Assembly (NCBI GenBank): GCA_963727835.1
Contig: CAVSIB010000016.1
Coordinates: forward strand, 20,511-84,510
Source: an uncultured delta proteobacterium
Lineage (GTDB): Bacteria > Desulfobacterota > WTBG01 > JAGOGO01
Direction of reading: 5' to 3'
Length of the DNA: 64,000 nt
In this document: positions 1,037 through 36,020 of the stretch, in pieces
Layout of the letters: every line of letters begins with the position of its first letter
How positions within the stretch are numbered: the stretch's first letter is position 1
Notes under the pieces: generated by a model
Told to the model about the DNA's origin: nothing
The model's input: the letters and a program-made list of their open reading frames with translations, nothing else
Databases searched by the model: none
Made by a program: the position numbers and the translations under genes

Positions 1037-1080
1037 TCAAAAAGGACGTCAGGCGTCAGTCAAAACTGACGAATCATGCA

Positions 1081-2437: not shown

Positions 2438-2605
2438 ATCTATTCTTCCTCAGGTGACCATTCTATCAGGAAAAGCTTAAAAGATAAAGTGTTTTCAAAA
2501 ATTTCTTTAACCAAGCTTTTTTTGACATAAAACATTCCCCAGTTGCCAACCTTCCCTTCCTGTGATAAGGAAATGCTTTATAAATCATTTTTTGGAGTAA
2601 TACCT

Positions 2606-3790: not shown

Positions 3791-4235
3791 AATTTTCTCA
3801 TCAATAAAATAAAGCGCGGCAATGGGCCATGTGTTCCAAAGTTGATTGCTTTCGTCAGTTTGGATGAAGAGTGAGCACCGCCCGGATAATTCGATCTTTG
3901 CTCTCCTGACCATAGAAATCTTGATTCCAAAGCCTAATGATACAAAAAAAGAATTGCCATCCTCTTTCACAAAAATAAAAAAATCCAAGACCAGTATATC
4001 TTATTCCCTATTTTGCGGACATTTTGCGAAAAGAAGGCAAGAAGGTTATTTTTTTATTCGGCACCAAAAAATTGGTGTTCGTTGATACTAACAAAACAAC
4101 CAGCATGGGAACAGCCACGTATGCCCTGAAGGTAAAACCGTTTGATAACCGCCGGACTGGAGGAATCTATTTTTATTTTTAAATCTCTGATTCTTGTTAA
4201 ATCAATACTCACTATTAAAGTCAATCGCCTAAGCA

Positions 4236-5195: not shown

Positions 5196-5374
5196 AATTT
5201 TTACACCTCCCCCTGCCAAATAAATAGTCTTCCTTAACGTCAAATCAATGAATTGATGGGCTTGAGCGAGGTGATAAATGGATTGCAAGGCATCCGAAAT
5301 AATGTTAGACAACCTTTCTGAAAAGTGTTAACATATTAATATATATTTAATATAGTTGAATTAACGGTTATTTT

Positions 5375-6232: not shown

Positions 6233-6247
6233 GAAAGGGGTAAGGTC

Positions 6248-17061: not shown

Positions 17062-17310
17062 TCAATAGGTAACGTATGATTCCCTTTTAGAGATTATCAA
17101 ATAATAGGTTGCTTCTTTATAATACTTTATGGGATAGACTTCAAGATTTTTTGGAGAGAGGCCTTGTGAAATTTGAGTAAATTCTTTCTGCGACGTTAGG
17201 CAGGCATGGGGTTCATATTTTTTAGTCAGAAAATTTACAACGTCCGATTCGCCAGAAAACTTTGGAGCCACTGTATCCAAATAAAAATCGATTAAAATCG
17301 CTTTTCCCAA
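17062..17310 (-). CDS. Hypothetical small protein (82 aa), TTG start
   Basis: ORF 18 nt upstream of, and co-directional with, the kinase-GT fusion gene. No recognisable domain and a weak RBS. Confidence 0.3.
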   Translation of the reverse strand: MGKAILIDFYLDTVAPKFSGESDVVNFLTKKYEPHACLTSQKEFTQISQGLSPKNLEVYPIKYYKEATYYLIISKRESYVTY

Positions 17311-17552
17311 ACTTTTTCCAAGTCAAAGTTGTTGTGAGAAGAAAAAAATAACGAATGAGGGTTTAATTTTATTTGGCTCATGTCGAAAAATTAGGTTTTT
17401 AGGGTGGGGAAGTTATATGTTACCTTTTGACAGCCTGATGACTGAGACTCAGTTACAAAATATTTTTTGCGGAATAATTTCCCGTCAAATTATTTTATTG
17501 GTTTAACGTGGTCTCCTCTCCGAAAAAAATAAGCAACCCCGGTGAACTAAAA

Positions 17553-17590
17553 TGCATAACAAAAAAAAATTATTTTTTTGTTATGCATGA
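17553..17590 (-). terminator. Near-perfect AT-rich palindrome (ATGCATAACAAAAAAA..TTTTTTTGTTATGCAT), candidate bidirectional terminator after the LAB_N gene
   Basis: The two 16-nt arms are exact reverse complements with a ~5-nt spacer. It lies ~60 nt downstream of the minus-strand stop at 17651. Confidence 0.4.
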
Positions 17591-17650: not shown

Positions 17651-17962
17651 TTAGCCTTCCTTCTTACGAAAAATGAGAACCAGATTCCGAATATAAACAA
17701 AGGCCCCCGCGCCTTGTCCAAGGATAAAGACAGCATCGCGGATATAAATCGCATACGCAAGTAAGATAAGTCCCCCGGCTAAGCTGAAATACCAGAAAGA
17801 AACAGGCACGACAGTCTCCCCTTTCCGTTCCGAGGCAATCCACTGCACCAGAAACCTCATAAAAAACAAAGCTTGTCCAACATATCCGATAACGCTCCAC
17901 CTATCCATTTTCATGCAAGACAAAGTTTGTCCAATATATCCGATAATGTTCCACCTATTCAT
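17651..17962 (-). CDS. Lipid-A-disaccharide synthase N-terminal domain (LAB_N) family small membrane protein; 5' end carries an in-frame 54-bp tandem duplication
   Basis: MDRWSVIGYVGQALFFMRFLVQWIASER...FWYFSLAGGLILLAYAIYIRDAVFILGQ matches the LAB_N family. It is preceded by a degenerate duplicate MNRWNIIGYIGQTLSCMK. The likely native start is the second Met (~17908). Confidence 0.75.
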   Translation of the reverse strand: MNRWNIIGYIGQTLSCMKMDRWSVIGYVGQALFFMRFLVQWIASERKGETVVPVSFWYFSLAGGLILLAYAIYIRDAVFILGQGAGAFVYIRNLVLIFRKKEG

Positions 17963-17963: not shown

Positions 17964-18330
17964 CAACACCTCCCTAACGATCTTTTAGGTCCCTCCTCAG
18001 GGAATTAATGCGGTCAAAAAATATCCAAAGCCCAAGGGCAATAAAAAGTTAAAAATAATAAAATTAATACTCTCTTTTGTCAAACGCTCACTTGTTTTCG
18101 AAAATATAATGTAAAAAGCCACTCAACCGCACTGGAAAAAACGGCAAACCCAAGCAATTGATTACTGGGGTTAGTTTTTGTTACGCTCCTTCGCCCCTAT
18201 CTACCGTTAAAACCCAAGCAAAGCATCGGGGAAATAGCCCCTCAGAAATAACTTCTTATCAGGTATTACCTTTCAAAAAAAATATACTGCTACGCTACGC
18301 GGTTACCTTCCTTGGCTCGGTACGCCTTTA

Positions 18331-19989
18331 TTATTTTTCCTGAGGATCATCATAGAATTGGGCAAATACGAAGCCGCGGTCACTATCCACAAACGCTGGT
18401 TGTGGAAGCTGGAGCTTATCGTCCCTATAGCGTTTTTCGCGGGTAATAAGCGTTATACGTCGAGAAGGTTGCGAAACCAGCTCCCGAAACTGATCAAGGC
18501 TAAATAAACGGTTCTTCTCGGGTGCGCGAGATACTCCGTAGTCGAGTTCTCCGGGTTTGCCGAGCAGGCATACGTCGCTTCGCTTATAAAACCAGCAAAC
18601 CGCAGACACGAGGTAGTTATCAGAAACCAAGGTCGTGTCCGGGCTTATCCTGTCTGTATGACGCAGTAAAAACTCACCCGGGACGAGATCATCTTTAAAT
18701 CTATCCGGCATGGCAACGTGCGAGATCAGCATGAGCAACAAGGGTCCAAGACAAAACAAGACAAGTTTTTGCTTAACATCCGAGGTTGCCGCGGCAACCA
18801 TAAAAAACACCGTCCAAGTCACAAGTCCCAAAAATAGGAAAACAAGTTTCCAGATTTCACCTGGCTCAAAAATTTTCCAATCCGGCGAAACCGGTAGCAC
18901 CTGACTGAGAAGCAGGCCGACTGCGCATAATCCCATTACCACCGCCAAAAAAAATGCGCCAATTGTTACCCATTTTGTTTCCTTTTTGAGGTAGTCAAGA
19001 AGACCCGCAGTAATAAGAATTACCAGAGGCTGAAAACAGGGGAGGATGTAAGTGCCGAGCTTGCCCCGTGAGGCGGAGAGGAACAAGAAAGGAAAGAGTA
19101 ACCAGCAGAAGGCAAACCGGAGAAGTGAATCCTTGAGAGCTCTCTCCTTGAGGCCTGAAAATGCAGCCGGAATGAATACCGTCCAGGGCAGCCCGCCCAG
19201 AAACAACAAGGGAATAAAGTAGTAGAAAGGCTGCGGATGCTGTGCGTCCTCTGACATAAACCGTTTGATGTGTTCTACCCAAAAAAAGTAGTGCCAGAAA
19301 TCAGGCTCCCGTTGATGGATTATCACGCTCCAAGGCAAAGCAACAAGGAGAGCAGCCACAAGGGGTACCCAGCAAATCCTGACAAGTTCCTGCCATCGGC
19401 GTTCCCAGATCATAAACGGCACAATCGTCATTACTGGTATCGCAAAAGCAAGAAATCCCTTGGCAAGGAACGCGAGACCGCAGAAGACTCCGAAAATCAC
19501 CAGAAAGCCAATCTTTCTCCCGGCCTGCTTCTCACTATGGGCAAAAAAGAAAGAAACCATCGCGCCAGCCAAAAATAGGGAAAATATGCTATCTAAAACA
19601 TTGAAACATCCAACCCCGAAGACTTCCATAGAGGTAAGAAAAACTGCAGCAGTGCTGATGCCTGCTAAAGATCCGCCTCCGAACTTTCGGACGAGCAAAA
19701 AAAGCAGTAGCGCAGACATGCCCATGGTGAGAGCGGACGGCAGACGCACCGCAAAGGCGTTTTGGCCAAAAAGAAACATCGCGGCTGCATTAAACCAATA
19801 TCCCATCACCGGTTTTTCAAAATACCGGAGTCCATCAAGATGGGGCACAACCCAATCTCCCGAAACGAGCATCTCCCGGGGAATCTCAGCGTACCGGGTC
19901 TCGTCGGGGAGGACGATCGGTCGAAGGCCGAGCGGCACGATGTAAATCAAAATAAAAAGTCCGATTACAACAAGAGATAATTTTTTCAT
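18331..19989 (-). CDS. arnT: Undecaprenyl-phosphate-alpha-L-Ara4N : lipid A arabinosyltransferase ArnT (GT83)
   Basis: 552 aa. N-terminus PDETRYAEIPREMLVSGDWVVPHLDGLRYFEKP and the internal QREPDFWHYFFWVEHIKRF are near-identical to the E. coli ArnT signature regions. ~12 TM helices plus a C-terminal periplasmic domain. Confidence 0.9.
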   Translation of the reverse strand: MKKLSLVVIGLFILIYIVPLGLRPIVLPDETRYAEIPREMLVSGDWVVPHLDGLRYFEKPVMGYWFNAAAMFLFGQNAFAVRLPSALTMGMSALLLFLLVRKFGGGSLAGISTAAVFLTSMEVFGVGCFNVLDSIFSLFLAGAMVSFFFAHSEKQAGRKIGFLVIFGVFCGLAFLAKGFLAFAIPVMTIVPFMIWERRWQELVRICWVPLVAALLVALPWSVIIHQREPDFWHYFFWVEHIKRFMSEDAQHPQPFYYFIPLLFLGGLPWTVFIPAAFSGLKERALKDSLLRFAFCWLLFPFLFLSASRGKLGTYILPCFQPLVILITAGLLDYLKKETKWVTIGAFFLAVVMGLCAVGLLLSQVLPVSPDWKIFEPGEIWKLVFLFLGLVTWTVFFMVAAATSDVKQKLVLFCLGPLLLMLISHVAMPDRFKDDLVPGEFLLRHTDRISPDTTLVSDNYLVSAVCWFYKRSDVCLLGKPGELDYGVSRAPEKNRLFSLDQFRELVSQPSRRITLITREKRYRDDKLQLPQPAFVDSDRGFVFAQFYDDPQEK

Positions 19990-20086
19990 TGGTTATTTTT
20001 TGTTGCCAGCGGGAACTGCGTTAACGCCTGAAAGGAGTATCGGCCTATGCGGATTTTGGGTGAACTTTTCGCAGCGTTCACATCTT

Positions 20087-20473
20087 TTACCCACTTCGGG
20101 TGATCAGAAAAACTCCACAACAAATGACAAGAATGCCCATCCACCGTGCAAAACCAAGAACCTCTCCAAAAAAAATTTGTCCTACTAATGCAGTCACGAT
20201 ATACCCTACGCTTAACAGCGGATACGCATAACTTACATCCACCCGAGACAGAACCATGAGCCACACAACGATACTAAAAGCATAGCACGCCATACCCAGG
20301 AGGATATGCGGATTAAGTGCCACCTTCAGCCCAACCGATATAAAGTTTTTTGCGACAAAAGAAAACGGCCCAATGGCTCGCATTCCTTGCTTGAGAAAAA
20401 GTTGGGCTGAGGCATTCAAAAGCACACCACATAAGGCCAACGGAAGATAGCGATTCATAGGGTATCCTCGCAA
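20087..20473 (-). CDS. arnF: ArnE/ArnF-family (SMR/EamA-like, 4-TM) Und-P-Ara4N flippase subunit
   Basis: 128 aa with four hydrophobic helices, similar in size and pattern to E. coli ArnF. Located between arnD and arnT. Only one such subunit is present in the locus. Confidence 0.75.
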   Translation of the reverse strand: MRGYPMNRYLPLALCGVLLNASAQLFLKQGMRAIGPFSFVAKNFISVGLKVALNPHILLGMACYAFSIVVWLMVLSRVDVSYAYPLLSVGYIVTALVGQIFFGEVLGFARWMGILVICCGVFLITRSG

Positions 20474-20479
20474 TTTATA

Positions 20480-21400
20480 TTAAGATACTGTTGCCTGGCA
20501 AGAAACCCATCCCTCACGGCCAGGAATTGTTTTGGGAATCATGGGAGAACATTCATACTGGGAAGCATCAGCAAGCAAACCTCCTAAGGGGCTAAACGTG
20601 GCCCCCTGGGATTGGGCTTGTTTCAAAAACTGCTCAAACATCTTAAGACAGATCATTCCTTCTACTTCCGCGTGAATGGTCAACACATTAAGCCCATGGG
20701 GTTGCAGTAGAGAAAGAATATACTCATTGTAATTGTGGTTTGAAATCCCCTTACGTCCAATAACTTCATCATACGTTGGTAAGGTAACGGGAATTTGGGG
20801 TTGGGAAAGTGTTATTCCATTCACCAGGGGGAAAAATATGCTTTTCCCCCGGCAGTCACTGTTGTAGGTAAAAGGAAATGTGGCTTTCTCCTTTAAGACC
20901 TGATCGTTACATTTCCATCCCGGAACCGCAGAACATGATGGTGGCCGGTCCACAATCGCGGTAAGCAATGCGATACCTCTTTTAAACGTATCATGGATGA
21001 CATCACTGCTCATGTTGTGAAGATACCTCTGCCATGCGTAATGATCCCAGGAATGAAAGCCAATTTCATGGCCTGCCCCTGCTGTCGCTCGAATAAGAGG
21101 CCCCAATTTTTCCCCAATAACTGGTCCCGGCCAGAACACCCCCTTGAGAAGGATATCCCACCCATACAGTTTCGTTGCCTGGGAACGCAGCATCTTTTTT
21201 AAAAATGCGGGACGAAACAATCGCCACAGATGACGCCCCATATTATCCGGCCCCACAGAAAAAAAGAATGAGGCGGTGATACCGAACTCCGCTAAAAGTT
21301 TACCTAGACTGGGCACGCCGAAACGGGTACCTCTAAAGGTGTCAACGTCAATGCGCAGGCCTATCTTCATGGCATCGTGATTATAACGGCTCATTCGCAA
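20480..21400 (-). CDS. arnD: 4-deoxy-4-formamido-L-arabinose-phosphoundecaprenol deformylase ArnD
   Basis: KIGLRIDVDTFRGTRFGVPSLGKLL...SFFFSVGPDNMGRHLWRL...GWDILLKG...NSDCRG...IPVTLPTYDEVIG...TIHAEVEG is collinear with E. coli ArnD (polysaccharide deacetylase fold). Confidence 0.92.
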   Translation of the reverse strand: MRMSRYNHDAMKIGLRIDVDTFRGTRFGVPSLGKLLAEFGITASFFFSVGPDNMGRHLWRLFRPAFLKKMLRSQATKLYGWDILLKGVFWPGPVIGEKLGPLIRATAGAGHEIGFHSWDHYAWQRYLHNMSSDVIHDTFKRGIALLTAIVDRPPSCSAVPGWKCNDQVLKEKATFPFTYNSDCRGKSIFFPLVNGITLSQPQIPVTLPTYDEVIGRKGISNHNYNEYILSLLQPHGLNVLTIHAEVEGMICLKMFEQFLKQAQSQGATFSPLGGLLADASQYECSPMIPKTIPGREGWVSCQATVS

Positions 21401-23404
21401 TCACTGGTTGTCTTCATGGTATCGACCAGAGCCGATAGCTTCCCGCAAGAAAAAATCGAGGGTTTGCTCTACCGATTGCTCAAGCTCTATCGAAGGTTCC
21501 CACTGCAAGAGCTGCTTGGCTTTCCGAATGCTTGGTCTTCGGTGTTGCAGATCCTGATAACCACTTCCATAATATACTGAGCTTTCTACCTCCTGAAAAC
21601 CGGCAAATGGCGGGAAGTTTGACCGAAGGGGATGTTTTTCAAATTTTTTCACCAACATCTCTCCCAGCGCTTTGATGCTCGCCTCATTATCCGGGTTGCC
21701 AATATTGATGATCTGCCCATCACAACAGTGGTTAGGATTTTCGATAATGCGAAACAAGCATTCGATCCCGTCGGAAATATCGGTAAAACAACGTTTCTGA
21801 TTTCCGCCGTCAATGAGCTTAATCGGTGTTCCTTCTACCAGGTTAAGGATGAGTTGGGTAATAGCGCGAGAACTCCCGATCCGTGCCGAGTTCAAGCTGT
21901 CCAAGCGCGGCCCGATCCAATTAAAAGGACGAAAAAGTGTAAAATGAAGCCCTTCCTGCTGACCGTATGCCCAGATAACCCGGTCAAGCAATTGCTTGCT
22001 GCAGGAATATATCCAGCGCTGCATGCGGATGGGGCCTAACACTAATTTCGAAGTATCTTCATTAAACTCGCCTTCATCGCACATGCCATAAACTTCAGAC
22101 GTTGAGGGGAAAATAATCCGTTTTTTATATTTTACACAGTATCGGACAACTCTCAGATTTTGTTCAAAATCGAGTTCAAAAACTTGGAGTGGTCTGCGCG
22201 TATATTCGATGGGTGTGGCGATGGCCACGAGCGGGATGACTATATCGCATTTTTTTATGTGGTACTCGATCCATTCGCGGTGAATGGCAATATCCCCTTC
22301 ATGAAAGTAAAATCCTGGTTTTCCCAAAAAACGTTGGATAGAGTTGGATTGGAGGTCTAACCCGTGTACTTCATAGTTTCCGTTATCCAGAAGCTTTTCA
22401 CTTAAGGCGTTACCGATAAAACCATCCATTCCTAAAATGAGAATTTTTTTCTTTTTTACCATCTCGATGTATTTGCTAGTAGAAAGTCCAAAGGTCATCC
22501 CCTCAACAAGATTGAATTCACGGGCAAGCTGAGTGCCACCCATGTAAATACCATTTTCAGCCTGGCCGAAATCAACACGGATGGCGCCTTTCCCGCACTG
22601 AATCACCAAAGGATCAAGAGAAATAATGGTGCCGGGATTCGCTTTTTTTTCATAATCCGGCATTTCAGTAACCATCCAAAAAAAACATTTGCGGTCACCG
22701 ATATAGCTGAATGCGCCCGGATAAGGAATGGTCACCGCCCGCACCAGATTTTTTACCTGGGAGGCCGTGGCAGCCCAGTTGATTTCACCGTCTTTGGGCC
22801 TGCGTCCGCCATAATAGGTTGCCTGAGAATGCTCCTGAGGTTGGCGCGTTACCGTTCTTTTTTTTATCTGGGGAAGAATTTCATCGAGCAATTGGCGCGA
22901 AGCCACAACCATTTTTTCGTAAAGCGACCGCGCAGTGTCATAATCAGAAATTGGGATTCGCTTCTGACCGACAATGTCTCCATCGTCAGCCCGGGGAGTC
23001 ATGTAATGAAGCGTAACCCCGGTTTCTTTCTCACCGTTGATCAGCACCCAGTTTATCGGACAACGTCCACGGTACTTGGGAAGGAGCGATCCGTGAAGAT
23101 TGAAGCATCCCGCAGGTGGGATGTTAAGGATAGGAGGACGTATAAGGTAGCGGTAATAGAAAGAAAAAATAATATCCGGCGCGAGTTCTTGAATCTTTTT
23201 TACCCAGAGGGGGTGATTGATATCATCGGGTGCATAAACGAGAAGATTATGGCTCGCAGCGCATTCGGTAACCGAATTAAACCAAAGGTTTTCATGAGGA
23301 TCATCCTTATGGGTAAAAACCGCAGCAATCTCGAACCCGTTTCGCACCAGGGCTTCAATGCCAGCACAGCCGATGTTATGATAGGCAAAAACTACAGCTT
23401 TCAT
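21401..23404 (-). CDS. arnA: Bifunctional UDP-glucuronate decarboxylase / UDP-Ara4N formyltransferase ArnA
   Basis: 667 aa. N-terminal formyltransferase ([13 protein letters not shown]...SFYYRYLI...[33 protein letters not shown]). C-terminal SDR dehydrogenase ([12 protein letters not shown]...[13 protein letters not shown]...[11 protein letters not shown]...[19 protein letters not shown]...[18 protein letters not shown]). Near-collinear with E. coli ArnA. Confidence 0.95.
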
Positions 23405-23484
23405 TTTGTCACCTTAAAATTAATTTTAATCAAATTTAGCTCCATAGAGCTCTTTGCTTTAGCCTCATAATAAAAAAATATAGT

Positions 23485-25172
23485 TTATCCTCCTTCTCTT
23501 TTAATCTCCCAAGCCACAAGCTTCTTTTCAGAGTTCTTCTCCCAAGGGAAGATCTTTTCGTTCACGCTCGGTTGCCCCAAGGTTCCGGCAGGAAGCTCTC
23601 GGAACAGATACTTGAGGTCACGACGGGTCGAAATCAGCACTTTGGTGTCTTTCCCTGATCGGAGAAAATTTGTGACTGATTCAGGAGACTTCACTACCCG
23701 CACAAAGCCGGGGACATCCAAATAGAACAGAACAGTGGTCTCGATTTCGCGATAGAACGCGATATCTGTGGGCATGATATTCGTTACCTGGGTTTGTATC
23801 TCCCGAGCAAATGGTTTTTTTGTACGGTAATCTTCAAACCTTACCTGCTGCCAGCAGAAAAAGCCTCCCATGAGAATAGCTGCTGTGGCAACCAAACAAG
23901 CTGCCTTTTGATTGATCCCCGTAACCTTGACCAGCAGGTTGAGACGCCATCTTTTTATAATCCAGGGGGTTAAGGCAAAAAAGCTTACTATGAGCGTAGC
24001 AAGCTTAATACCCCCGGAACTACAAAATCTATGCGTTTTTGAAGAAAGAAGCAAATCGCCGGACTCAAAAACCCAAAAAGTACAATAAGGGCAAAGAGTC
24101 CTTCCTGGATGCCAAGCCCCAAACGTTTCCACCCTTCTTCGCCGACAGTCTTTAAATAAACTGCAACAATTAGAGCGCAGAAGGGGAGGATCGGGAGAAT
24201 GTAGTAACTCCTCCTTGAACCGGAAGCAGTAAACAAGAGAAAAATGAGAAGCGTGGCCTCTACAAGCCACCTAGTTTTGCCATCAAGGTTCTTTATCGAG
24301 GCAGTCGTTCTGAAAATCGCCACGAGAAGTAATGGGGTCCAGGGCAAAAAGAGGACAGGGAGATAATAGAAATACACATAAAAAGGTTCCACATGATCAA
24401 AGGGATGGAAAAAGCGCTGAATATTTTCCTGGAACACCAGGGCAAGTCCAGTTTCCTGATATGATCCTTGGGTCAGGTTAGCATAAATAAATGGAGCCAG
24501 ATAAAGGGCAAGGCCGATAATAAGGGACATAGCGTGGGAAGGCGAAAGGAGTGCCCGCCACCGCCGTTCTCGAAGAACATCCGGCAATAGCGCTACCATT
24601 GGCACTACCACTGCGGTAAGCCCTTTGGTTTGGGCGCCAATAAAGCAAATGAGATAAAAAACGAGATAGGTCAAAAAATTTTCTCTTCCCCGCCAAGTCC
24701 AATACCAGGCGATAGATAGGATGACCGTGGCAAGGTTTTCCATGTCTGCGGTCCCTGACCTTGACCAAAAAAGAAATCCAAATGCAGTAAGAAGAATCCA
24801 GCCGGATGTCCTTCCAGCTTCCTCTGACCATAATCTTCTCCCCAGAAACACTGTTGCCCAAAGCACCATTATGCCTGCAATTGCGCTTGGAAGCCTTACC
24901 GTCCATTCATTGAGTTTGCCCGTGAGGGCAGAGACTAGAGCGATAAGCCAGTAGGTAAGAAGGGGCTTGTCAAAGTAGGGTTCGCCATTGATAGTGGGGT
25001 GGAAGAAATTCCCCGAAAGAAACATCTCTCGGGTGACCTCAGCCCAACGGTCCTCGGAGGCCCAGAGGCCTCGGTTACCAAGTACCCAGAAAAGAAAAAA
25101 CAATGCAACTACCCAAAAGATGATATCCGAAATTCGTATCCGTACCTTTGCTTTTGAGACACTACTATCCAC
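23485..25172 (-). CDS. ArnT/PMT-family (GT83/COG1807) membrane glycosyltransferase, paralog 2; one frameshift
   Basis: N-terminal part (23988-25172) has SEDRWAEVTREMFLSGNFFHPTINGEPYFDKPLLTYW and multiple TM helices. The C-terminal part (23485-24270 frame) continues after a C5/G5 run at 24011-24015: reading ..DFVVPGV then GIKLATLIV.. joins if one G is inserted. Confidence 0.75.
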
Positions 25173-26106
25173 GATGGATCTTCCTCAAGAGGTATGGTGG
25201 TCGCCTCCTAACCGCCTGGAAAATTCTTCCGATGTACTCGCCCAGAACCCCGAGCGCAAAAAGCTGAGCACCGATAAAGCAGAAAAGTACGGCAAAGAGA
25301 GTAAATACTCCTTGTCCCGCCCATTGTGCCCCGTAATAAAATCGGAGAAACAGTATAAGCATCCCAAGCAGGAGACCCAGTATAGCAATCACGGTTCCTA
25401 CAAAGAAAAGAACCCGGAGAGGCAACAGAGAAAACCCAGTCACAAGATCAAGTTGCAAGCTGAAAAGCTTCAGGAGTGAGTACTTTGATTCTCCCGCACA
25501 TCTTTCTTTATGAAGAACAGGGATCTCTATTGGATTTCTCGCAAACAAGGTAGCTAAAGCAGGAATAAATGTCCGGTACTCAGGATTCGCCAGTATCGCT
25601 TCCACAACTTCCCGACTGTAACCCCGAAGCATACAACCGAAATCATCCAGAGATATGCCGGATATTTTTTTTACAAGCTTGTTCGTAAATTTCGATGCCC
25701 ATCTCCTAAAGAACGTATCTTGCCGGTTAATTCGGATGCTTCCCACGAGATCGTGCCCTTTGTTAAAGGCCTCGACTAACTTCGGAATCTCTTCCGGAGG
25801 ATTCTGCAAGTCAGCGTCGAGGGTAACGACAAACTCGCCTCGCGACTCAGCAAATCCAGCCAAAACCGCAGCGTGCTGTCCATAATTTCGGTTTAGCAGG
25901 ATCCCAATGACTTTACCCGGGTTCTGTTCGGCAGCCTCAGTAATAAGTTGGGCAGATCGGTCAATACTGCCATCATCCACCAGAATAATCTCGAAGGTCT
26001 TCCCCAGGTTGTTACAGGCTGTCAAGCAACGGCTGATAAGTTCCTTAAGGTTTGCCTCCTCGTTAAACGCAGGAATAACAACCGATAACAAAGGTGATGC
26101 ACTCAT
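25165..26106 (-). CDS. arnC: Undecaprenyl-phosphate 4-deoxy-4-formamido-L-arabinose transferase ArnC (GT2)
   Basis: LSVVIPAFNEE...IILVDDGS.DRS...NRNYGQHAAVLAGF...VVTLDADLQNPPEEIPKLV...GCMLRGYSR..TFIPALA...ESKYS, plus two C-terminal TM helices. Collinear with E. coli ArnC. Confidence 0.92.
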   Translation of the reverse strand: MSASPLLSVVIPAFNEEANLKELISRCLTACNNLGKTFEIILVDDGSIDRSAQLITEAAEQNPGKVIGILLNRNYGQHAAVLAGFAESRGEFVVTLDADLQNPPEEIPKLVEAFNKGHDLVGSIRINRQDTFFRRWASKFTNKLVKKISGISLDDFGCMLRGYSREVVEAILANPEYRTFIPALATLFARNPIEIPVLHKERCAGESKYSLLKLFSLQLDLVTGFSLLPLRVLFFVGTVIAILGLLLGMLILFLRFYYGAQWAGQGVFTLFAVLFCFIGAQLFALGVLGEYIGRIFQAVRRRPPYLLRKIHRG

Positions 26107-27254
26107 CGCTTTAACACCTCTTTTATTGTATCCACAACCTCATCCACATCTTCACTGGTCATGTCCGGGAAAAGCGGGAGAGAGCAGATCCGGTCGGAGT
26201 TCCACTCTGTGTTCGGCAGCATGCCCCGGCACGTGCCCATTGATTCCCGAAAATATTTTTGAAGGTGAACCGCCCGAAAATGAAGTCCGGTGCCGATATT
26301 TCTCTTTTTTAATTCTTCCATAAACGCATCCCGGGATAGGCCTGCCTTATCAATATTTAAGCGAATAATAAAAAGATTCCAGGAGTGCTTCATCGAATAC
26401 AATGGATCAGAGAGGGGCGTGATTTCATCAAGTTCGACAAGCCGTTCACGGTATCGCAGAGCTAATGCGGTTCGTTTTTTAATCAACTCCTCGAGCCGGG
26501 CCAGTTGTTTCAGTCCCAAAGCAGCAGCAATGTCGGTGAGGTTATACTTATATCCGGGGACAAGAACTTGGGCTTGGGGAGAACGGCCGCGGGTAAAACG
26601 ATCATACGCATCCACGCCCAGCCCGTGGAACTTCAGTTGGCGGATACCCTCCAGAAGCTCGGGGTTGTCCGAACAAAACATACCTCCCTCACCCGTGGTA
26701 ATATTTTTTATGGGGTGAAAAGAAAAAATTGCTGTTCCGGTTTGGCCAATACGGGTATCCTTATACTCAGTTCCCAACGCGTGGGCTGCATCATCAGCAA
26801 GAAAAATATTATTCCGTGCAGCGAGCCGGCGAATAGAATCTATATCCGCAGGAGCCCCAGCAAAATGAACCGGAACAATTAACCGTGTTCGCTCGCTCAG
26901 GCATTCCCTCATTGAATCACCAGATACCATCAACGTGTCCCGTTCAATATCCGCAAACACGGGTTTCGCACCTGCGAGGACAATAAGATTCACCGTAGAA
27001 ACCCAGGTCATTGACGGCGTAATAACCTCATCTCCCGGGCCGATACGTAAAGCGTGCAGCAAAAGATGCATGCCCGCAGTCGCGGAAGTGAGCGCTACCG
27101 CCCCCGAACAACCAACGTACTTGCAGAAATTCTCTTCAAAGTCAGTACATTTCACCCCGGTTGTTATCCATCCTGACCGCAGCACCCCGGCAATGGCGGT
27201 GATATCTTCCTCAGTAATGGAGGGACGCGAAAATGGCAAAAATTCTTTTCTCAT
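26103..27254 (-). CDS. arnB: UDP-4-amino-4-deoxy-L-arabinose--oxoglutarate aminotransferase ArnB (DegT/DnrJ/EryC1 family)
   Basis: EFLPFSRPSITEEDI...GWITTG...SATAGMHLLLHAL.IGPGDEVITPSMTWVSTVN...HFAGAPADID...SFHPIKNIT.GEGG...LKFHGLGVDAYDR...PGYKYNLTDIAAA...NTEWNSDRICSLPLFPDMT. Very close to E. coli ArnB. Confidence 0.95.
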   Translation of the reverse strand: MRKEFLPFSRPSITEEDITAIAGVLRSGWITTGVKCTDFEENFCKYVGCSGAVALTSATAGMHLLLHALRIGPGDEVITPSMTWVSTVNLIVLAGAKPVFADIERDTLMVSGDSMRECLSERTRLIVPVHFAGAPADIDSIRRLAARNNIFLADDAAHALGTEYKDTRIGQTGTAIFSFHPIKNITTGEGGMFCSDNPELLEGIRQLKFHGLGVDAYDRFTRGRSPQAQVLVPGYKYNLTDIAAALGLKQLARLEELIKKRTALALRYRERLVELDEITPLSDPLYSMKHSWNLFIIRLNIDKAGLSRDAFMEELKKRNIGTGLHFRAVHLQKYFRESMGTCRGMLPNTEWNSDRICSLPLFPDMTSEDVDEVVDTIKEVLKR

Positions 27255-27364
27255 CAGTTTTTTCGTTACCGTCTGTTTTTCAGAACTTTTTTAACTTCAA
27301 CGCTTTCTGCAGCGGTCATTTTTCTTTTTTAGCACACCGCCGTTGGGAGAAGCAATACTTATTT

Positions 27365-29158
27365 TCACTTCGCGCTAAGAGCGCTCCATGCATAAAGACA
27401 ATAGGCACGACGATCCCCGAGATGCCAGCATCGAAGTACCTGAAGCCGCGAGCGAACGTCATCCGGAAGATTGGGAAAAACCGCTTCGAACACGAGAAGT
27501 TTTCCCCGGGGAGTTGTCACTATATAACGGTCAAGTTCTTCAGAGGTAGCTATGTTCTTTGGCACAAAACCGGTGTCATACGGAATAACTCCCATCGTCG
27601 TTTCATCCAGACGATAGCCGATAAGCTCCGGGAAAGTGGCTTTCATAGTCTGGAGGTCTCTGGTAAAATAATGGAGATTTTTGACACCATCTCCCAAACG
27701 GAAAAACAGCGAGCCACCACACACAAAAAAAATAAAGACCAAACAAGCGCAGACCAATCCCACTCGTGGAGAGCCGCTTTTCCAGAGACGCATACCATAC
27801 GTAGTCAATCCTATACTCATGATCAAAAGTAACCCAAAGAGCATGAAAAACATTAACGCGGAAGGTTTGGCCTGCAACACCGCATGAAACCGGGCGAAAA
27901 AGCTCGCGCCGCCGAAATAGGCGACCGGCATGGCCACCAAAGTGGCTAAAACAGACAAAGCTAAAATCATAAGCATAATGACGTGCGTAGCGTGATCAAT
28001 TTTTTGCGAGTATTCCCTTTTAGCGGTTGCCGCAACCCACGCGCCGATAACGGCGCCAAGCGGGGCAAAGAGCGGCAAAAGGTAAAGCATGCGCTTGGTT
28101 GCTGGAAGACTTAGAAGAATAACGCCAATTGGAAATATTGAAGCAAGGGAAAATAACGCCGGACCATTCCATTCCGAAGGCCAGCATTTGCGCCAAAGCC
28201 AGTGACCAACCGCGGGAAGCGCAATCACCCACGGAATAATTTCGCTCGGAAATTGCAGGTAGTACCAGAAAGGGTGACGGTGCCCCCCTTCGTGGTATTG
28301 TCCGAATGCCGGGGAAATACGACCAAATACGTTGGGGCGTATAAAGCCGTCGAAAAGAAGCTCTTTGCCCCCCCGAAAATAAAGCATTAAAGGCCACCAC
28401 AGGCACAAAGCCAAAAAAATAACTATGCCCGGAATGTGCACCCACGAGCGAAAGAAGTTCCATCGCCGTGTTATCAGAGCAGCCACAAACAACGGTACCG
28501 CAACAAGACCCGGGCCAACCGGCCCTTTAACAAGGAAAGCAAGTCCGCCGGCAAGATAGATCACAAAAATGCCCCATGCGGAAGGCTTGATCGCTTTCTC
28601 ATCATCTAAATCTTTTTTACTGAAGACAGCAACCACAAAGCCCCAATAGCCTAGCATGACAAAAAGGGCAAGCCAGGGGTCAACCACCACCCTATGGAAA
28701 TGGTGATAAAAACCAGACAGGGTGGCCGTCACGATGGTAGCCATAAGGCCGGCAAACGGGTTTGCAATCCGCCTAGCCACATCAAATACCAAAATCAGCG
28801 TCATAACTCCGGCAAGAGCACTCGTGCTGCGCGCCACTCCGTCTGAAACCCCAAAGAGGTGGTACATTCCCGCCATGGCCCACCAGTAAAGCGGAGGTTT
28901 TTCCAGGAATGGTTTTCCTGCCAAGGTGGGAACAACAAAGTCGCCGCTCACCAACAGCTCCCGTCCAACCTCGGCATCGCGGGGTTCATCAGGAGTCCAG
29001 AGCGCATGATCAAAGACTCCGGTGAAAGAAATGAGAAGGCTTGCGGCAAGTGCCACCAAAAACGCCTGCCGATTAGTCAAGACAGTTAACTTCTCAACAA
29101 GGCTACCGATCAGTTTTAAAATCCAACTATTCATTATAACACTCGATTTTTTAAACAA
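27365..29158 (-). CDS. ArnT/PMT-family (GT83/COG1807) membrane glycosyltransferase, paralog 3
   Basis: 597 aa. PDEPRDAEVGRELLVSGDFVVPTLAGKPFLEKPPLYWW is followed by ~12 TM helices and a C-terminal soluble domain. Confidence 0.8.
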   Translation of the reverse strand: MFKKSSVIMNSWILKLIGSLVEKLTVLTNRQAFLVALAASLLISFTGVFDHALWTPDEPRDAEVGRELLVSGDFVVPTLAGKPFLEKPPLYWWAMAGMYHLFGVSDGVARSTSALAGVMTLILVFDVARRIANPFAGLMATIVTATLSGFYHHFHRVVVDPWLALFVMLGYWGFVVAVFSKKDLDDEKAIKPSAWGIFVIYLAGGLAFLVKGPVGPGLVAVPLFVAALITRRWNFFRSWVHIPGIVIFLALCLWWPLMLYFRGGKELLFDGFIRPNVFGRISPAFGQYHEGGHRHPFWYYLQFPSEIIPWVIALPAVGHWLWRKCWPSEWNGPALFSLASIFPIGVILLSLPATKRMLYLLPLFAPLGAVIGAWVAATAKREYSQKIDHATHVIMLMILALSVLATLVAMPVAYFGGASFFARFHAVLQAKPSALMFFMLFGLLLIMSIGLTTYGMRLWKSGSPRVGLVCACLVFIFFVCGGSLFFRLGDGVKNLHYFTRDLQTMKATFPELIGYRLDETTMGVIPYDTGFVPKNIATSEELDRYIVTTPRGKLLVFEAVFPNLPDDVRSRLQVLRCWHLGDRRAYCLYAWSALSAK

Positions 29159-29392
29159 TTATAGCAAATTTGTTTCAAAGACTCTTAAAAATATTATTAA
29201 TAACTCAATGAAGATTAACGGTGCATTAATTAAAAATTAATTTTTCTTAAGAAATATATACTACGAAAGGTTATCTCTGGTGAACTGATGCTCGTTACGG
29301 ATGCGAGAAAAAATTTTTGAATCACCTTCGCGGGTTATAACAGTCAATGGTATCGTTTTTTTATCTGAGCCATGCCTTTTCCCTTCCAACCA

Positions 29393-30981
29393 CTACCGAG
29401 CAACAAAATGCACCAAGAGCAGAGGTATGGCATTATTTTTTTCCGAACTCTCATGGCTGAGAACCACCTCAAACATGAGTTGATCTTTTCCTAAAGCCGA
29501 AAGCATTTCATAGATGTCTTGAGCGACAAGAAAGTAACCTTGTTTTCTGGAAGCCAGCGCGGAAACAACCGCCCGGGGTTGTGGATCAAGATCCAACCTT
29601 CGAAACTCGCGTCGCGCGTAGAAAGGAAGAGCGTCTTTCGTTTGAGTGAAATATATCGGTTCATTCCTGGGCACAAGGCGGTTAATGCCCTGGGCAAAGC
29701 TAACAATGCTCCTCCGAGCGCTCACCGGTGGTTCAATCCAGCCAGAAATCGTGATTATACATAGCACGCCGGTTAAAACGAAAAGTTTGAAAGCCCTTTG
29801 AGGGCGTGAAAAAAGAAAACAGGAACCTATGGATGCTGGAATGGCAAGACAGCAGCCCACGGCAAGTGCCACCGTGAGGCTCGCAATTCCGCGGGAATAG
29901 ATAGAGAAACCGACCCCGAAAGAGAAGAGCACACAGCACAGTGAAAGCAACCCAGCCAAAACCCAGCCAAAACGATCTATATTCCTGCTCTCAATTATTT
30001 TCAAAAACTGCCTCAGCAGCACAGCCTCAATCACGCCCACGGAAGGAATCACCGGCAAGAGGTGATGGATCGGCTGTTTGGCACACGCTGCGAAGAAAAC
30101 GAAGTTTCCGGTCAACCACAAGGAACAAAACCGCAGTCGTGACCAGCTTTGCAATTTTCGTCCCCAGGCCGGCAAAAAAAGTGCCCCAATGCCGAAAATA
30201 CTCCAGGGGTAAGTGAACCACGGCCAATTGCCCAGGTGTTGGAAATAACTCCAGCCATTATGCTCCTGGCTCGGAACCACAGACCGTTTTACGTCAGCAA
30301 TCACCTGCAGCAGAAAGTCTTTTTCCATAACCAAAGCATTATCGGCCAGGCAAATGCGAACCCTATCACCATGAGCAGTCCCCACCACGGTCGCATCCGC
30401 ACCCCCAGCTGCCATTGATGCGACACCCATAGTTCCAGCACAATAGGTATACTCACAATAACCAGTGCCAACGGCCCCTTGAACAAGCAGGCTAACGACA
30501 GGCTAACATAAAACCCCCACCACGAAGCTGACCACGCTCGGCCCTCCTTTTTCCATACCAGCCACAACAGCAGAGCAAGGCCTGTAAAAAAGCTCAGCAA
30601 TAAATCTTGGCTCGGCGAATGACATTCGGAAATAAAATAAGGTGTGACGGCCAAAATCAGGGCGGCAATCCGTCCGGTTTCCCTGTCAAAAAGTCGGCGC
30701 GTTATCGCCCAGGCCACAAAGATAATCCCCAGGCCGGCGAGCGCAAACGGCAGTCGGAAGCCCAACTCATTTCGTCCCAGCAGCCGCATGCTTCCCACCA
30801 CGATCCAATCCGCAAACGGGGGTTTCAAAATCCGCGGTTTACCTTCCAATTGCGGCAACAGCCAATGGCCGTTGTCAGCTACATCCGCCGCCGTGCCGGC
30901 GATTCTCCGTTCACGCACATCCGCGATATCGCGCGACCCAAGAAAACAGAACACCGATACGATGCAGACGATGCCAACCAA
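29393..30981 (-). CDS. ArnT/PMT-family (GT83/COG1807) membrane glycosyltransferase, paralog 4; one frameshift in 30301-30430
   Basis: N-terminal ORF (30301-30981) has RERRIAGTAADV...HWLLPQLEGKPRILKPPFADW. The C-terminal ORF (29393-30430) is in another frame. Homopolymers at 30320-30324 and 30402-30406 lie in the overlap. This stretch is visibly more GC-rich than the neighbouring arn genes. Confidence 0.7.
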
Positions 30982-31641
30982 CAGGTCAGCATATTGTGCC
31001 CAGAACAGATATGTCTGCGCGTTCTTTCTGAGAAACTCGCAAAGCCTGCGATTTGGCGCAGCGGGGCAGAAATCTAATAAAAGCTTGCTGTTTAGCTGAC
31101 AAAAGAATATCTAACCAATGTTTATAAAAATGAATAAAAACTATTTTTATGCTGGCAACCTCAGAACTATACTTATGAATCTGGCGAGATACCAGGAATT
31201 AAGGGGACCACCACTAAAGATAACATTTTACGATGTCTTTTCTTCTTCCGTTATTTTTTAAAAGAAGCATGCGGTAGAGCATCAGCAAAATCAGCGATAG
31301 CAACAAACTAAAAAAAACCTCCCAGGACTGCAACCACCAAAGACTCCTTTAGAATTTCTGGTCAATAAGTCCGAATATATCTATTTATGATAGTGTACAT
31401 GAATTAAAAATTCAAATCCTTTTTTTACCTATTGCTCCCTGTAACATTCTAAAGATTTTTTAAATTAAATTTTTTTAATGGTGAGAACTTTTTTAATTAC
31501 TACTTGTCACCAAAGTATGCTAAGTTGACTTTTTTTACTTTCTTTCGATTAAAGTGATTATGAAAAAATTTTTAAAAAAGATCCAAGAGATAATTTAGTT
31601 TTACGGCACTTAAAAAACGCGGAACTTCAGGAGTATAATCT

Positions 31642-32532
31642 ATGTCGGTTGTTATACGGTTTTCTTCGCCAAATCTTGTTGCCGCTGGTTCAGTCGCCGC
31701 GAGTGTTGAAGAAAAGCTTTATTTTCAAGGGACAAACGGCCGGGCTGTTCTTTTAGTACATGGGCTTACCGGCTCGCCTTATGAGATGAAATATTTGGCG
31801 CATTTTTTTCATGAACGCGGCTATACAGTGTCGTGTCCCAGGCTGGCAAATCATGGACAGCCGCTGGATGTGTTAAAACAGACAAAATGGACTGAATTTT
31901 ATGATTCAGTCCGTAAAGCTTTTTTTGATTTAACATCCGGCCATGATAAGATTTTTGTCGCCGGATTATCGATGGGGGCGTTGTTATCGCTGGCCCTGGC
32001 TGAAGAGTATCCGGATGCGGTCGCCGGAGTAAGCTGTTTGTCACCGACTTTATTTTATGATGGCTGGAACGTTCCCTGGTCGCGAATCTTTTTGCCGCTG
32101 GTCTGCGCTACGCCGCTTAAAGATTTTTTTTATTTTAAAGAAGAACCTCCGTATGGTATTAAAAACGAAAAAATACGCCAGTTAATCCATAGGTATTACA
32201 GCCGGGCAACTTTGGATAACATGAAAGAAGTGGCAAGGCACGGTTATCCGTATTTTCCAGTGGTGTTATTAAACCAGCTAAAGTTATTGATCGTTTTTTT
32301 GCGTAAACGTTTTAATAAGATAATTACTCCGGTGCAGATGATCCAGGCTAGATATGATGACATGACCAGCCCTCGTAATGCACGGTTTATATATGACCGG
32401 GTCAGTTCAAAGAAAAAAGAGATCGTGTATTTGGAAGATTCGTATCATGTGATTACGGCTGATCAGGAGAAAGATAAGGTGGCTTATGTGATGGATGAGT
32501 TTTTTGGGAACATCCGAGGAGCCAGTTCATGA
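31642..32532 (+). CDS. Alpha/beta-hydrolase fold esterase/lipase-like protein
   Basis: VLLVHGLTGSPYEM, nucleophile elbow GLSMGA and a downstream D/H region. Its stop overlaps the next start (ATGA). Confidence 0.75.
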   Translation: MSVVIRFSSPNLVAAGSVAASVEEKLYFQGTNGRAVLLVHGLTGSPYEMKYLAHFFHERGYTVSCPRLANHGQPLDVLKQTKWTEFYDSVRKAFFDLTSGHDKIFVAGLSMGALLSLALAEEYPDAVAGVSCLSPTLFYDGWNVPWSRIFLPLVCATPLKDFFYFKEEPPYGIKNEKIRQLIHRYYSRATLDNMKEVARHGYPYFPVVLLNQLKLLIVFLRKRFNKIITPVQMIQARYDDMTSPRNARFIYDRVSSKKKEIVYLEDSYHVITADQEKDKVAYVMDEFFGNIRGASS

Positions 32533-33254
32533 TGCCGAAAAAAGCTGATGATCAGGAACTGAAACTTCTTTTGGAAGCAGGCAACCTTGATATTTCCGCC
32601 TGTGGGGTATTTTTTGATTTTGATAACACTATTACTTCCTATGACGTGCTGGACGAGATAATCAAGCGGTTTGCTGTAGACAGCGAGTGGGAGGAATTTG
32701 AAAAGGCCTGGGCTGAAGGAAAGATTGGTTCGCGTGAATGCCTTAAGGGGCAGTTAAAGTGTTTGCGGGCAACAAAAGACGATCTGATCAAGTATGTTTC
32801 TGAGGTAAAGGTCGATCCATATTTTAGCAATATAATTAACTTATTAGTGGTTGCCGGGATTGAGCCGGTACTAACCAGCGATAGTTTTACTTTTGTGATA
32901 AACCAGATATTGCGCTGTAACGGGATCAAAGGGGTCAAAGTCTACGCCAACCAATTGCGGTTTTCAGGTAAAAATCTGATCCCGGTGTTTCCGCTTTCCG
33001 ACCCGCTTTGCAGTAAATGTGCGCATTGCAAGAGAAACCGTTTGTCTGACAGCCGAAGCCGCTCGAGATTCCTGGTCTATGTCGGCGATGGGCGTTCGGA
33101 TATTTGTCCGGCTCAGGCCGCGGATTTGGTATTTGCGAAAGACAGCCTGATCCGTTATTGTGCGGATATGAATAAGCCTTGCGTTGAGTTTAAAGACCTC
33201 AGCGAAGTATATAACCATTTAAGGAGGCAGCCCAATGGCACAAACGTTAAGTGA
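32529..33254 (+). CDS. HAD-superfamily phosphatase, MtnX-like (DxDxT, with a CxxC..C cysteine cluster)
   Basis: FFDFDNTIT (motif I), GDGRSD (motif IV) and SKCAHCKRN. Resembles 2-hydroxy-3-keto-5-methylthiopentenyl-1-phosphate phosphatase-type HADs. Translationally coupled to its neighbours. Confidence 0.65.
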   Translation: MMPKKADDQELKLLLEAGNLDISACGVFFDFDNTITSYDVLDEIIKRFAVDSEWEEFEKAWAEGKIGSRECLKGQLKCLRATKDDLIKYVSEVKVDPYFSNIINLLVVAGIEPVLTSDSFTFVINQILRCNGIKGVKVYANQLRFSGKNLIPVFPLSDPLCSKCAHCKRNRLSDSRSRSRFLVYVGDGRSDICPAQAADLVFAKDSLIRYCADMNKPCVEFKDLSEVYNHLRRQPNGTNVK

Positions 33255-34623: not shown

Positions 34624-34690
34624 GGCGATATGCTGAAAAAGGAAACTCATCACTTACTTTTACGGTTATAGCGCTTTTATTAGCTACTGA

Positions 34691-34992
34691 TTTGGCGGAA
34701 ATGGCCGCGGAAGCATTGTTTACACAGATAAATTTCACGACTATGATTCTCTGGTATTCTGTGGTTACCGCCACATCAAGATTGACCATGGCAAGTACTT
34801 CGCTTCCGGCAAAGTGTATATTAATGACCTTGAAGGGTTCTGGACTTTCGCCAAAGAACGCCTAATGAAATATCATGGAGTTTCACAAAAGAAATTTCCC
34901 TTGTAGTTAAAAGAGCTGGAATTCCATTATAATAACAGATACAAAAATATGTTCGCTTTATTAACTCAATTACTGGCTGAGTTCGAACCAAA
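34691..34992 (+). pseudogene. IS1595-family (ISXO2-like) transposase C-terminal remnant with an internal stop
   Basis: Translation GSIVYTDKFHDYDSLVFCGYRHIKIDHGKYFASGKVYINDLEGFWTFAKERLMKYHGVSQKKFPL*LKELEFHYNNRYKNMF matches the conserved C-terminus of IS1595 DDE transposases. The N-terminal ~200 aa is not present. Confidence 0.7.
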
Positions 34993-35132
34993 TCTTTTAT
35001 AATCACCTAAAATTTGATATTGCATACAAAAATGAAATTCAGCGGCGTGGTTGAGTAGGTATAAAGGGGAAATCCCAGGTGCTATAATTTTCCGGTAAAG
35101 CTTTGTCAGCATCGGCATGAATAGAATCGAAA

Positions 35133-35885: not shown

Positions 35886-36020
35886 CTCATACAAGGATAG
35901 TTAAAAAAACAGCGATGATTCACCACTGTTAAAGAACACCTGACGGCAGTGAGAGCAAACCCCCGCCAGATCCTGACAGGAATTTTGTCAAAATCCCCAT
36001 GACCGGAGAGCTTTGTCGCA

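Follow-up and report, generated by a model that had tools for sequence, protein, structure and literature searches.

A predicted L-Ara4N lipid A modification operon with interleaved ArnT-family paralogs in an uncultured delta proteobacterium

The addition of 4-amino-4-deoxy-L-arabinose (L-Ara4N, or Ara4N) to lipid A is the main route to resistance against polymyxin and cationic peptides, and to our knowledge this modification is understood almost wholly from Proteobacteria that carry a single transferase, ArnT. A stretch of 64,000 nucleotides from an uncultured delta proteobacterium (GenBank assembly GCA_963727835.1, contig CAVSIB010000016.1, positions 20,511 to 84,510; hereafter the window, to which all coordinates refer) raises the question of what several ArnT-like genes might do within one arn operon. 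There, the genes for Ara4N synthesis and transfer are interleaved with three further genes of the ArnT family (GT83). A sequence-only reading of this DNA had proposed that the paralogs deliver Ara4N to several acceptor positions. The analysis reported here points to a chromosomal, island-like system for the L-Ara4N modification of lipid A with extra transferases, in which accessory genes have been inactivated, and we give this explanation as a whole somewhat better than even chances. The locus is a variant of a known system, which leaves the known mechanism unchanged and introduces no new principle; its value lies in the candidate genes that it offers for testing.

The arn core and its flippase gene

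The open reading frames (ORFs) of the window were listed and scanned with Pfam and NCBIfam profiles, and identities to E. coli K-12 proteins were determined by tblastn. Every gene named in the sequence-only reading was found, in the order given there and all on the minus strand, i.e., GT83-4, GT83-3, arnB, arnC, GT83-2, arnA, arnD, one ArnE/ArnF-like gene, arnT and LAB_N. The five enzymes of the pathway, which that reading had also recognized, were 35-62% identical to their E. coli counterparts. ArnB, the UDP-Ara4O aminotransferase (26103..27254), scored 573.5 bits with NF008658 (cut-off 631) and was 58% identical to E. coli ArnB; ArnC, the Und-P (undecaprenyl-phosphate) Ara4FN transferase of family GT2 (25165..26106), scored 417 bits with NF007986 (cut-off 529) and was 54% identical. 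For both, the Arn models were the best matches, though the scores lay under the equivalog cut-offs. ArnA (21401..23404) matched NF005998 over its full length (1098.8 bits, cut-off 777; 62% identity) and is a bifunctional protein in which an N-terminal formyltransferase is fused to a C-terminal UDP-glucuronic acid (UDP-GlcA) oxidative decarboxylase. The deformylase ArnD (20480..21400) reached 397.3 bits with NF011923 (cut-off 382; 50% identity), and the canonical lipid A Ara4N transferase ArnT (18331..19989) 518.8 bits with NF009784 (cut-off 567; 35% identity). Judged by its sequence, the locus is a genuine operon for L-Ara4N addition to lipid A with a complete pathway.

The gene between arnD and arnT (20087..20473) encodes an ArnE/ArnF-like membrane protein of the EamA/SMR type that scored 64.6 bits with the ArnF model and 36.6 bits with the ArnE model, both under the cut-off. 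No second ArnE/F homolog was detected at E<1 when the whole window was searched by tblastn, so that in place of a heterodimeric two-gene ArnE/ArnF pair the window holds one EamA/SMR gene of 123-128 aa. The single flippase gene noticed in the sequence-only reading was thus borne out, and the gene is also single-copy in the related contigs L001, L003, L009, L011 and L012. Its product is the presumed Und-P-Ara4N flippase and probably acts as a homodimer, a stoichiometry that we infer. In the proposed mechanism, ArnA, ArnB, ArnC and ArnD would convert UDP-GlcA into Und-P-Ara4N, this protein would flip the lipid-linked sugar to the periplasmic face, possibly helped by the semiSWEET-like LAB_N protein, and the canonical ArnT would then move Ara4N onto a lipid A phosphate.

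The arnBCADTEF (pmrHFIJKLM) operon of E. coli and Salmonella likewise has a bifunctional ArnA fusion, an SMR/EamA-type flippase gene and a two-component system nearby. The locus in the window differs from it in gene order, in the single flippase gene instead of the ArnE/ArnF pair, in the three extra GT83 genes and a fifth GT83 remnant interleaved with the pathway, in the LAB_N gene downstream, and in its island-like character with variable content.

The ArnT-family paralogs and their relatives

Three ArnT-like paralogs in addition to arnT, two of them frameshifted, had been described in the sequence-only reading, and this was confirmed. GT83-3 (27365..29158) is intact and scored 56.8 bits with PMT_2 (PF13231). 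GT83-2 (23485..25172; 49 bits) is disrupted into the ORF pieces 23988..25172 and 23485..24270, and GT83-4 (29393..31102; 69 bits), a rare and divergent ArnT-like GT-C protein, into 30301..30981 and 29393..30430. In sequence searches of the Protein Data Bank (PDB), the Cupriavidus ArnT (5EZM) was the only match for all four GT83 proteins, with E values of 2.6e-40 for ArnT, 1.2e-13 for GT83-3, and 1.3e-14 and 2.3e-11 for the remaining two. No Pmt chain was matched by the extra proteins in these searches at E<=1, and the Pfam scan detected no MIR domain in GT83-2, GT83-3 or GT83-4. We therefore rejected the idea that they are protein O-mannosyltransferases (GT39 PMT); a grouping with enzymes of that kind was one of the outcomes that, according to the sequence-only reading, would have undone its proposal. 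The four proteins are 16-21% identical pairwise. In a neighbour-joining tree with database relatives they fell into four deep clades, and ArnT of the window grouped with E. coli ArnT. By these distances they are ancient paralogs; a recent duplication was ruled out by the low identity and by the separate deep clades, each of which has relatives in other taxa. The ratio of nonsynonymous to synonymous divergence (dN/dS) between relatives was 0.18-0.31 for all GT83 genes (GT83-4, 0.18-0.23; GT83-2, 0.18), which indicates purifying selection.

We then mapped ten positions of the Cupriavidus ArnT (CmArnT), together with the RYA and YFEKP motifs, on the alignment of the four proteins. These two periplasmic-loop motifs are required in Burkholderia and Salmonella ArnT (PMC5377068). 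ArnT of the window carries all the mapped residues, including RYA, YFEKP, D158, K203, R270, Y345 and the Glu of GEL-YG. K85, D158 and K203 are conserved in all three extra proteins, which on this ground and on their PF13231 scores are GT-C proteins of the GT83/PMT_2 type. The strict motif pair is present in ArnT only, the corresponding residues being RWA/YFDKP in GT83-2, RDA/FLEKP in GT83-3 and RIA/RILKP in GT83-4. GT83-3 retains nine of the ten positions (D55, E56, E84, K85, D158, K203, R270, Y345 and E506), with Y59 replaced by Asp. Six are left in GT83-2 (E56, K85, D158, K203, R270 and Y345), where D55, Y59 and E506 are lost or changed and E84 is Asp. GT83-4 keeps four (E56, K85, D158 and K203), and the others, including R270, E84, Y59 and E506, are lost or changed.

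The genomic context of the three families in other organisms was also analyzed. Relatives of GT83-3 at 40-58% identity occur in metagenome-assembled genomes (MAGs) of Brocadiia, Nitrospirales and Planctomycetota. The locus of a Brocadiia MAG (L008) has no GT83 gene other than this relative, and the operon there comprises arnB, arnC, arnA in two halves, the GT83 and arnD. A Nitrospirales MAG (L009) has the relative next to arnA, arnC and arnB, together with a two-component system and an EamA gene. The GT83-3 lineage appears to carry out Ara4N transfer in Brocadiia and Nitrospirales. Relatives of GT83-2 at 50-60% identity are widespread in Desulfobacterota, inside arn operons that hold another GT83. 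On the two contigs used for this comparison, the homolog directly follows arnC in Dissulfurimicrobium hydrothermale and an ArnT-like gene in an uncultured Desulfobacterium (contigs L003 and L004). The GT83-4 family is rare: a search of 5.8 billion proteins yielded nine relatives with >=50% identity, and a distant one (L006) lies outside any arn context. For GT83-3 and GT83-2, therefore, the genomic context favours the arn pathway as the source of the donor; for GT83-4 it does not. Since GT83-4 has lost most of the functional residues of ArnT and its distant relatives are found away from arn genes, Ara4N transfer by this protein is doubtful.

We infer sugar donors and acceptor positions from this context and from the conserved residues. 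GT83-3 is the candidate for a second Ara4N transferase, given its position at the head of the core, its near-complete catalytic set and its occurrence as the sole GT83 in the Brocadiia arn operon; it would most likely serve a different acceptor position, such as the second lipid A phosphate, or a Kdo (3-deoxy-D-manno-oct-2-ulosonic acid), core or heptose phosphate made by an adjacent WaaP-like kinase-GT4 fusion. GT83-2 would be a third arn-linked transferase that adds Ara4N elsewhere, and for GT83-4 both donor and acceptor are uncertain. The proposal of several Ara4N acceptors thus gains from the context of GT83-3 and GT83-2; it does not extend readily to GT83-4, and an adjacent gene block, described below, offers another donor.

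The closest precedent for such a mechanism, by analogy, is the Rgt system of Rhizobium leguminosarum and Mesorhizobium, where one lipid-linked donor feeds several ArnT-family GT-C paralogs, each with its own position on the lipopolysaccharide (LPS). RgtE makes dodecaprenyl-phosphate-galacturonic acid (GalA), RgtC acts on core or Kdo, and RgtD and RgtF act on the 4' and 1 positions of lipid A. RgtA and RgtB are GT83 paralogs that act on core or Kdo (PMC4402001). The Rgt sugar is the anionic GalA instead of Ara4N, however, and the rgt genes are dispersed and not gathered in one operon with the donor pathway. In Burkholderia cenocepacia, Ara4N is found on lipid A and on the inner-core Ko (D-glycero-D-talo-oct-2-ulosonic acid) residue, and a distinct core Ara4N transferase has been left open (PMC5377068). 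One ArnT is recognized there, whereas the operon described here contains candidate extra transferases. The locus and the families traced from it offer concrete candidates for Ara4N transferases with other acceptor positions, the question left open in the Burkholderia literature.

Is the expansion peculiar to this genome? The sequence-only reading had treated the locus as rearranged and expanded, but the comparison with relatives does not set it apart. In a collection of species-representative genomes the sole match was the complete genome of Thermodesulfobacteriota bacterium ORM2a (CP113000.1), a benzene fermenter of the Sva0485 clade, with 77-94% amino-acid identity and the same core synteny. 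A metagenome contig from JGI (L002) matched 17.6 kb of the window with 98.95% identity, whereas a look-up of the exact ArnT sequence of the window in the public index gave no entry. The layout in ORM2a is two-component system, ICMT-like gene, GT83-4, GT83-3, arnBCAD, flippase gene, arnT, LAB_N and GT83-5. Contig L011 has six GT83 genes, among them GT83-2 and GT83-5, and L012 lacks GT83-2, GT83-4 and LAB_N. When ORM2a, L002, L011 and L012 were compared, the constant core consisted of GT83-3, arnB, arnC, arnA, arnD, the flippase gene and arnT, with GT83-3 always heading the core operon in the genus. Genus-level relatives carry three to six GT83 genes around this core, and the expansion is therefore characteristic of the lineage; a layout with several transferases is the usual state in the clade, and KEGG/PGAP already annotate it in ORM2a. 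The authors of the ORM2a genome assigned the 14 orthologous genes to predicted genomic island #4 and found KEGG module M00761 complete and undetected in the proteomes (PMC13101534 supplement), which fits an inducible accessory system. A search of the main text of that paper for LPS or Ara4N gave no result.

The arnC gene records how one of the paralogs arrived. Residues 1-100 of the window ArnC are 80-88% identical to ORM2a ArnC; residues 125-313 are 64-86% identical to Dissulfurimicrobium ArnC versus 44-54% to ORM2a ArnC. Furthermore, the synonymous divergence (dS) of arnC from ORM2a is saturated at 3.5, compared with 0.3-0.47 in the neighbouring genes. By this pattern the window arnC is a recombinant chimera whose breakpoint marks the entry of GT83-2, so that GT83-2 entered as a cassette that included the 3' part of arnC, through recombination within that gene. 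The locus thus illustrates routes of diversification, namely cassette recombination inside arnC and the gain, loss and decay of GT-C genes.

Another possible donor is encoded next to the operon. Between the two-component system and GT83-4, a divergent seven-gene block on the plus strand (31642..38798), absent from the ORM2a locus, contains genes for an alpha/beta hydrolase, a HAD-IB phosphatase, a class-III aminotransferase, a GT2, a GT-C protein and a PIG-L protein. The best matches of the GT2 (250 aa; 35133..35885) were the polyprenyl-phosphate-sugar synthases AglJ, PpgS and ArnC. It is followed by a frameshifted gene for a 563-aa membrane protein (36021..37716) and by the PIG-L/LmbE deacetylase gene (37713..38798). 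With the 563-aa protein, Pfam, a PDB sequence search and single-sequence hhalign returned nothing significant. Its family comprises 1356 cluster representatives at E<=1e-3, and the profile of this family aligned with the GT83 profile at an hhalign probability of 96% (E 4.3e-9). An AlphaFold2 (AF2) model had a mean pLDDT, the predicted local distance difference score, of 90.4; the top 36 Foldseek hits in the PDB were all GT-C enzymes, and the best TM-score was to ArnT 5F15 (0.54/0.56). The modelled protein is accordingly assigned a GT-C fold related to ArnT. A relative of 42% identity (L014) is also followed by a PIG-L gene. As a side result, a large GT-C family that has no Pfam model and is linked to a PIG-L deacetylase has come to light.

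The GT2/GT-C/PIG-L block looks like a hexosamine-type three-component modification system, with the same component set (GT2, deacetylase and GT-C) as the lipid A hexosamine systems FlmF2/NaxD/FlmK of Francisella and LgmA/LgmC/LgmB of Bordetella. In those systems the deacetylase is YdjC-like or polysaccharide-deacetylase-like. Here, by contrast, the deacetylase is of the PIG-L type, and the GT-C belongs to a remote uncharacterised family instead of being a recognisable GT83. We considered a functional pairing of GT83-4 with this block and discarded it, as ORM2a has GT83-4 and lacks the block, which moreover has a GT-C of its own. In L012, the region upstream of GT83-3 (690..6406) holds genes for a Gfo/Idh/MocA oxidoreductase, an LPG_synthase_TM protein, a DegT aminotransferase, an ArnC-like GT2 and a GT83. 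This separate module points to a distinct pathway of amino-sugar modification within the island.

An alternative has to be considered, namely that the extra GT83 proteins use other polyprenyl-phosphate sugars, e.g., a hexosamine made by the GT2 and PIG-L proteins, or modify acceptors other than LPS, such as proteins, surface polysaccharides or periplasmic glucans, and only share an envelope-modification island with the arn genes. Known GT83 enzymes do use galactosamine (GalN), glucosamine (GlcN) or GalA donors (PMC4402001). In addition, the window has a second GT2 with a deacetylase nearby, L012 has its oxidoreductase/aminotransferase/GT2/GT83 module beside the arn core, and GT83-4 lacks R270, E84, Y59 and E506 and has distant relatives outside arn contexts. 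This alternative is nevertheless confronted with the GT83-3 relative that is the only GT83 of the Brocadiia arn operon examined, with the GT83-2 relatives embedded in arn operons right after arnC in distant Desulfobacterota, and with ORM2a, which keeps GT83-3 and GT83-4 while the block and its own GT-C are absent. We give it well under even chances. As a source of an alternative lipid-linked sugar, the block lowers the confidence of an Ara4N assignment for the whole set of GT83 paralogs.

Several observations weigh against the explanation preferred here, an Ara4N system with extra Ara4N transferases. ArnB, ArnC, ArnT and the flippase protein score below the NCBIfam equivalog cut-offs, and GT83-3 has Asp in place of the RYA Tyr, a Tyr required in both ArnT proteins tested. 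GT83-2 is without D55 and E506, the neighbouring GT2 could supply a different lipid-linked sugar to any of the extra transferases, and donor and acceptor assignments in this clade are drawn from context and conserved residues alone.

Frameshifts and gene decay

Two of the three extra GT83 genes in the operon are broken and GT83-3 is intact. Relative to L002, GT83-4 has a 1-nt deletion at ~30322 (GGAA-AAAG vs GGAACAAAG) and GT83-2 a 1-nt deletion at ~24010 (GGGGG-TAT vs GGGGGATGT). GT83-4 carries a second lesion, a 1-nt insertion at ~31008, within an N-terminal extension of 40 codons whose frame is open in five relatives. Intact alleles encode 569 aa for GT83-4 (L002/P0241) and 562 aa for GT83-2 (L002 and P0121). 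The sequence-only reading had placed the frameshifts at homopolymer sites; neither deletion is a simple change in homopolymer length, and none of the other frameshift sites described here is a clean change of that kind.

Further lesions, which the sequence-only reading did not include, were found around the operon. A two-component system is encoded on the minus strand by an OmpR-type response regulator gene (40614..41288) and a sensor histidine kinase gene (39181..40645), identified by Pfam and, for the kinase, by frame analysis. Their orthologs in ORM2a lie directly upstream of the arn locus, and the system probably regulates it. The kinase gene is frameshifted by a 1-nt insertion at ~40042, an extra A (CAAATCC vs CAATCC). 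Contig L013, 99.3% identical, has an intact kinase gene but a different lesion, a 1-nt deletion that frameshifts the response regulator at window position 41100. In the adjacent GT2/GT-C/PIG-L module, itself an addition to the earlier reading, the gene for the 563-aa protein is split by a 1-nt insertion at ~36836; in L002 its frame stays open, and an intact relative, P0273, is 95% identical. Finally, on the minus strand at 17062..17381, tblastn with the 551-aa GT83 of ORM2a, which follows LAB_N there, revealed what is left of a fifth GT83 gene (GT83-5). Some 24 codons from the N-terminus and 75 from the C-terminus are joined across an internal deletion of ~1.36 kb, with 79% identity over residues 1-24 and 85% over residues 477-551. 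In the present state of the locus, GT83-2, GT83-4, GT83-5, the neighbouring GT-C and the sensor kinase would thus be inactivated, and the core (GT83-3, arnBCAD, the flippase gene and arnT) is intact.

These frameshifts could be artefacts of sequencing or assembly, in which case all the GT83 genes, the kinase and the neighbouring GT-C would be intact in the organism. Contigs 98-99% identical to the window do have intact alleles, the broken genes are no more diverged from L002 at the amino-acid level than their intact neighbours, and four broken genes in 64 kb are many for a free-living bacterium. Related long-read-style contigs with Flye-like names also contain plainly fragmented genes that resemble assembly errors (L010; arnT in L011), a point that tells against real decay. 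So does the scope of the search: outside 17-41 kb, frameshifts were sought only through overlapping ORF pairs and Pfam coverage. The distribution of the lesions, however, speaks against random error. Each of the five coding indels hits an accessory GT-C gene or the sensor kinase gene, with two of them in one gene, and most of the sites are not homopolymer runs. The alignment to L002 showed no sign of a frameshift in ~9.7 kb of core arn genes, and none was seen in ~35 kb of housekeeping coding sequence, as judged by ORF layout and Pfam coverage only. Moreover, the 1.36-kb deletion in GT83-5 cannot be a base-calling error, and the independent contig L013 bears a different frameshift in the partner response regulator. 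In view of this distribution, the double hit in GT83-4 and the genuine deletion that affects GT83-5, real inactivation is more likely than random assembly error, and we consider the artefact explanation rather unlikely.

The frameshifted genes might also still be expressed by recoding or phase variation, which would make the surface modification switchable. At the GT83-4 site the sequence is TGG AAA AAG ACT, and a -1 slip on AAA AAG would give WKKDFLLQV, compared with WNKDFLLQV in the intact allele; the independent lesions in the same two-component system of two near-identical sequences would suit this idea as well. The heptamer is G_AAA_AAG, however, and not the canonical A_AAA_AAG, no stimulatory element was identified, and the other three sites lack a slippery motif, two of them needing a +1 shift. 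Intact relatives have AAC AAA at the GT83-4 site, so that the slip site is not conserved. The slip-like sequence at 30310..30330 is probably a coincidence, and we find expression by recoding hardly credible.

A bolder form of the preferred explanation can be put forward as a speculation to which we give a low probability. The operon would encode a set of position-specific Ara4N transferases, GT83-3 would be a second independent ArnT lineage that Brocadiia and Nitrospirota use, GT83-2 or GT83-3 would be the long-hypothesised core/Kdo Ara4N transferase, and populations would switch off modifications and the kinase by frameshift, which would lead to heterogeneity in surface charge.

The downstream flank and the rest of the window

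LAB_N (17651..17962, minus strand) encodes a small membrane protein that matches PF07578 with 106.5 bits (gathering score 26.7). The gene lies outside 18331-30981, the range first assigned to the locus, and a gap of 368 nt separates it from arnT. The strongest sigma-70-like match in the region, TTGACA-17-TATTAT (11 of 12 positions), falls within this gap at 18083..18055, and a hairpin is present at 17588..17552. LAB_N may have its own promoter, and its co-transcription with arnT, as assumed in the sequence-only reading, is therefore not established. The position of LAB_N downstream of arnT is kept in ORM2a and L011. The family has been placed in the MtN3/semiSWEET-like clan (PMC4499210), and for the function of LAB_N/PF07578 the literature search gave clan membership only. 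The ORF opens with a duplicated motif (NRWNIIGYIGQTL / DRWSVIGYVGQAL) at 17900..17962. In relatives, the called protein has 90-94 aa and starts near the second copy of the motif, which places the probable true start ~16-18 codons downstream of 17962.

The arn locus is followed directly by a minus-strand gene at 14227..17043 for a 938-aa fusion of a double WaaP/Kdo-kinase-like part with a GT4 (PF06293 in two stretches, Pkinase and Glycos_transf_1). It occupies the same place in ORM2a, and the LPS core is the probable target of its product. Near the arn operon of Dissulfurimicrobium, Kdo kinase and GT4 are encoded by separate genes.

The G+C content of the arn locus (18000..32000) is 0.45-0.48, compared with 0.38-0.44 in the flanks. 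When the entire window was searched for regulatory RNAs with Rfam, only a tRNA-Leu was returned. The remaining window consists of ordinary chromosomal genes, among them ftsEX, envC, obg, proBA, argGH, metG and mdoGH. Some 17-24 kb from the locus, the plus-strand region 48357..54715 contains genes for a polyprenyl synthase and a PAP2-family phosphatase together with mdoG/mdoH-like periplasmic glucan genes; the PAP2 protein is a candidate lipid A or undecaprenyl-diphosphate (Und-PP) phosphatase.

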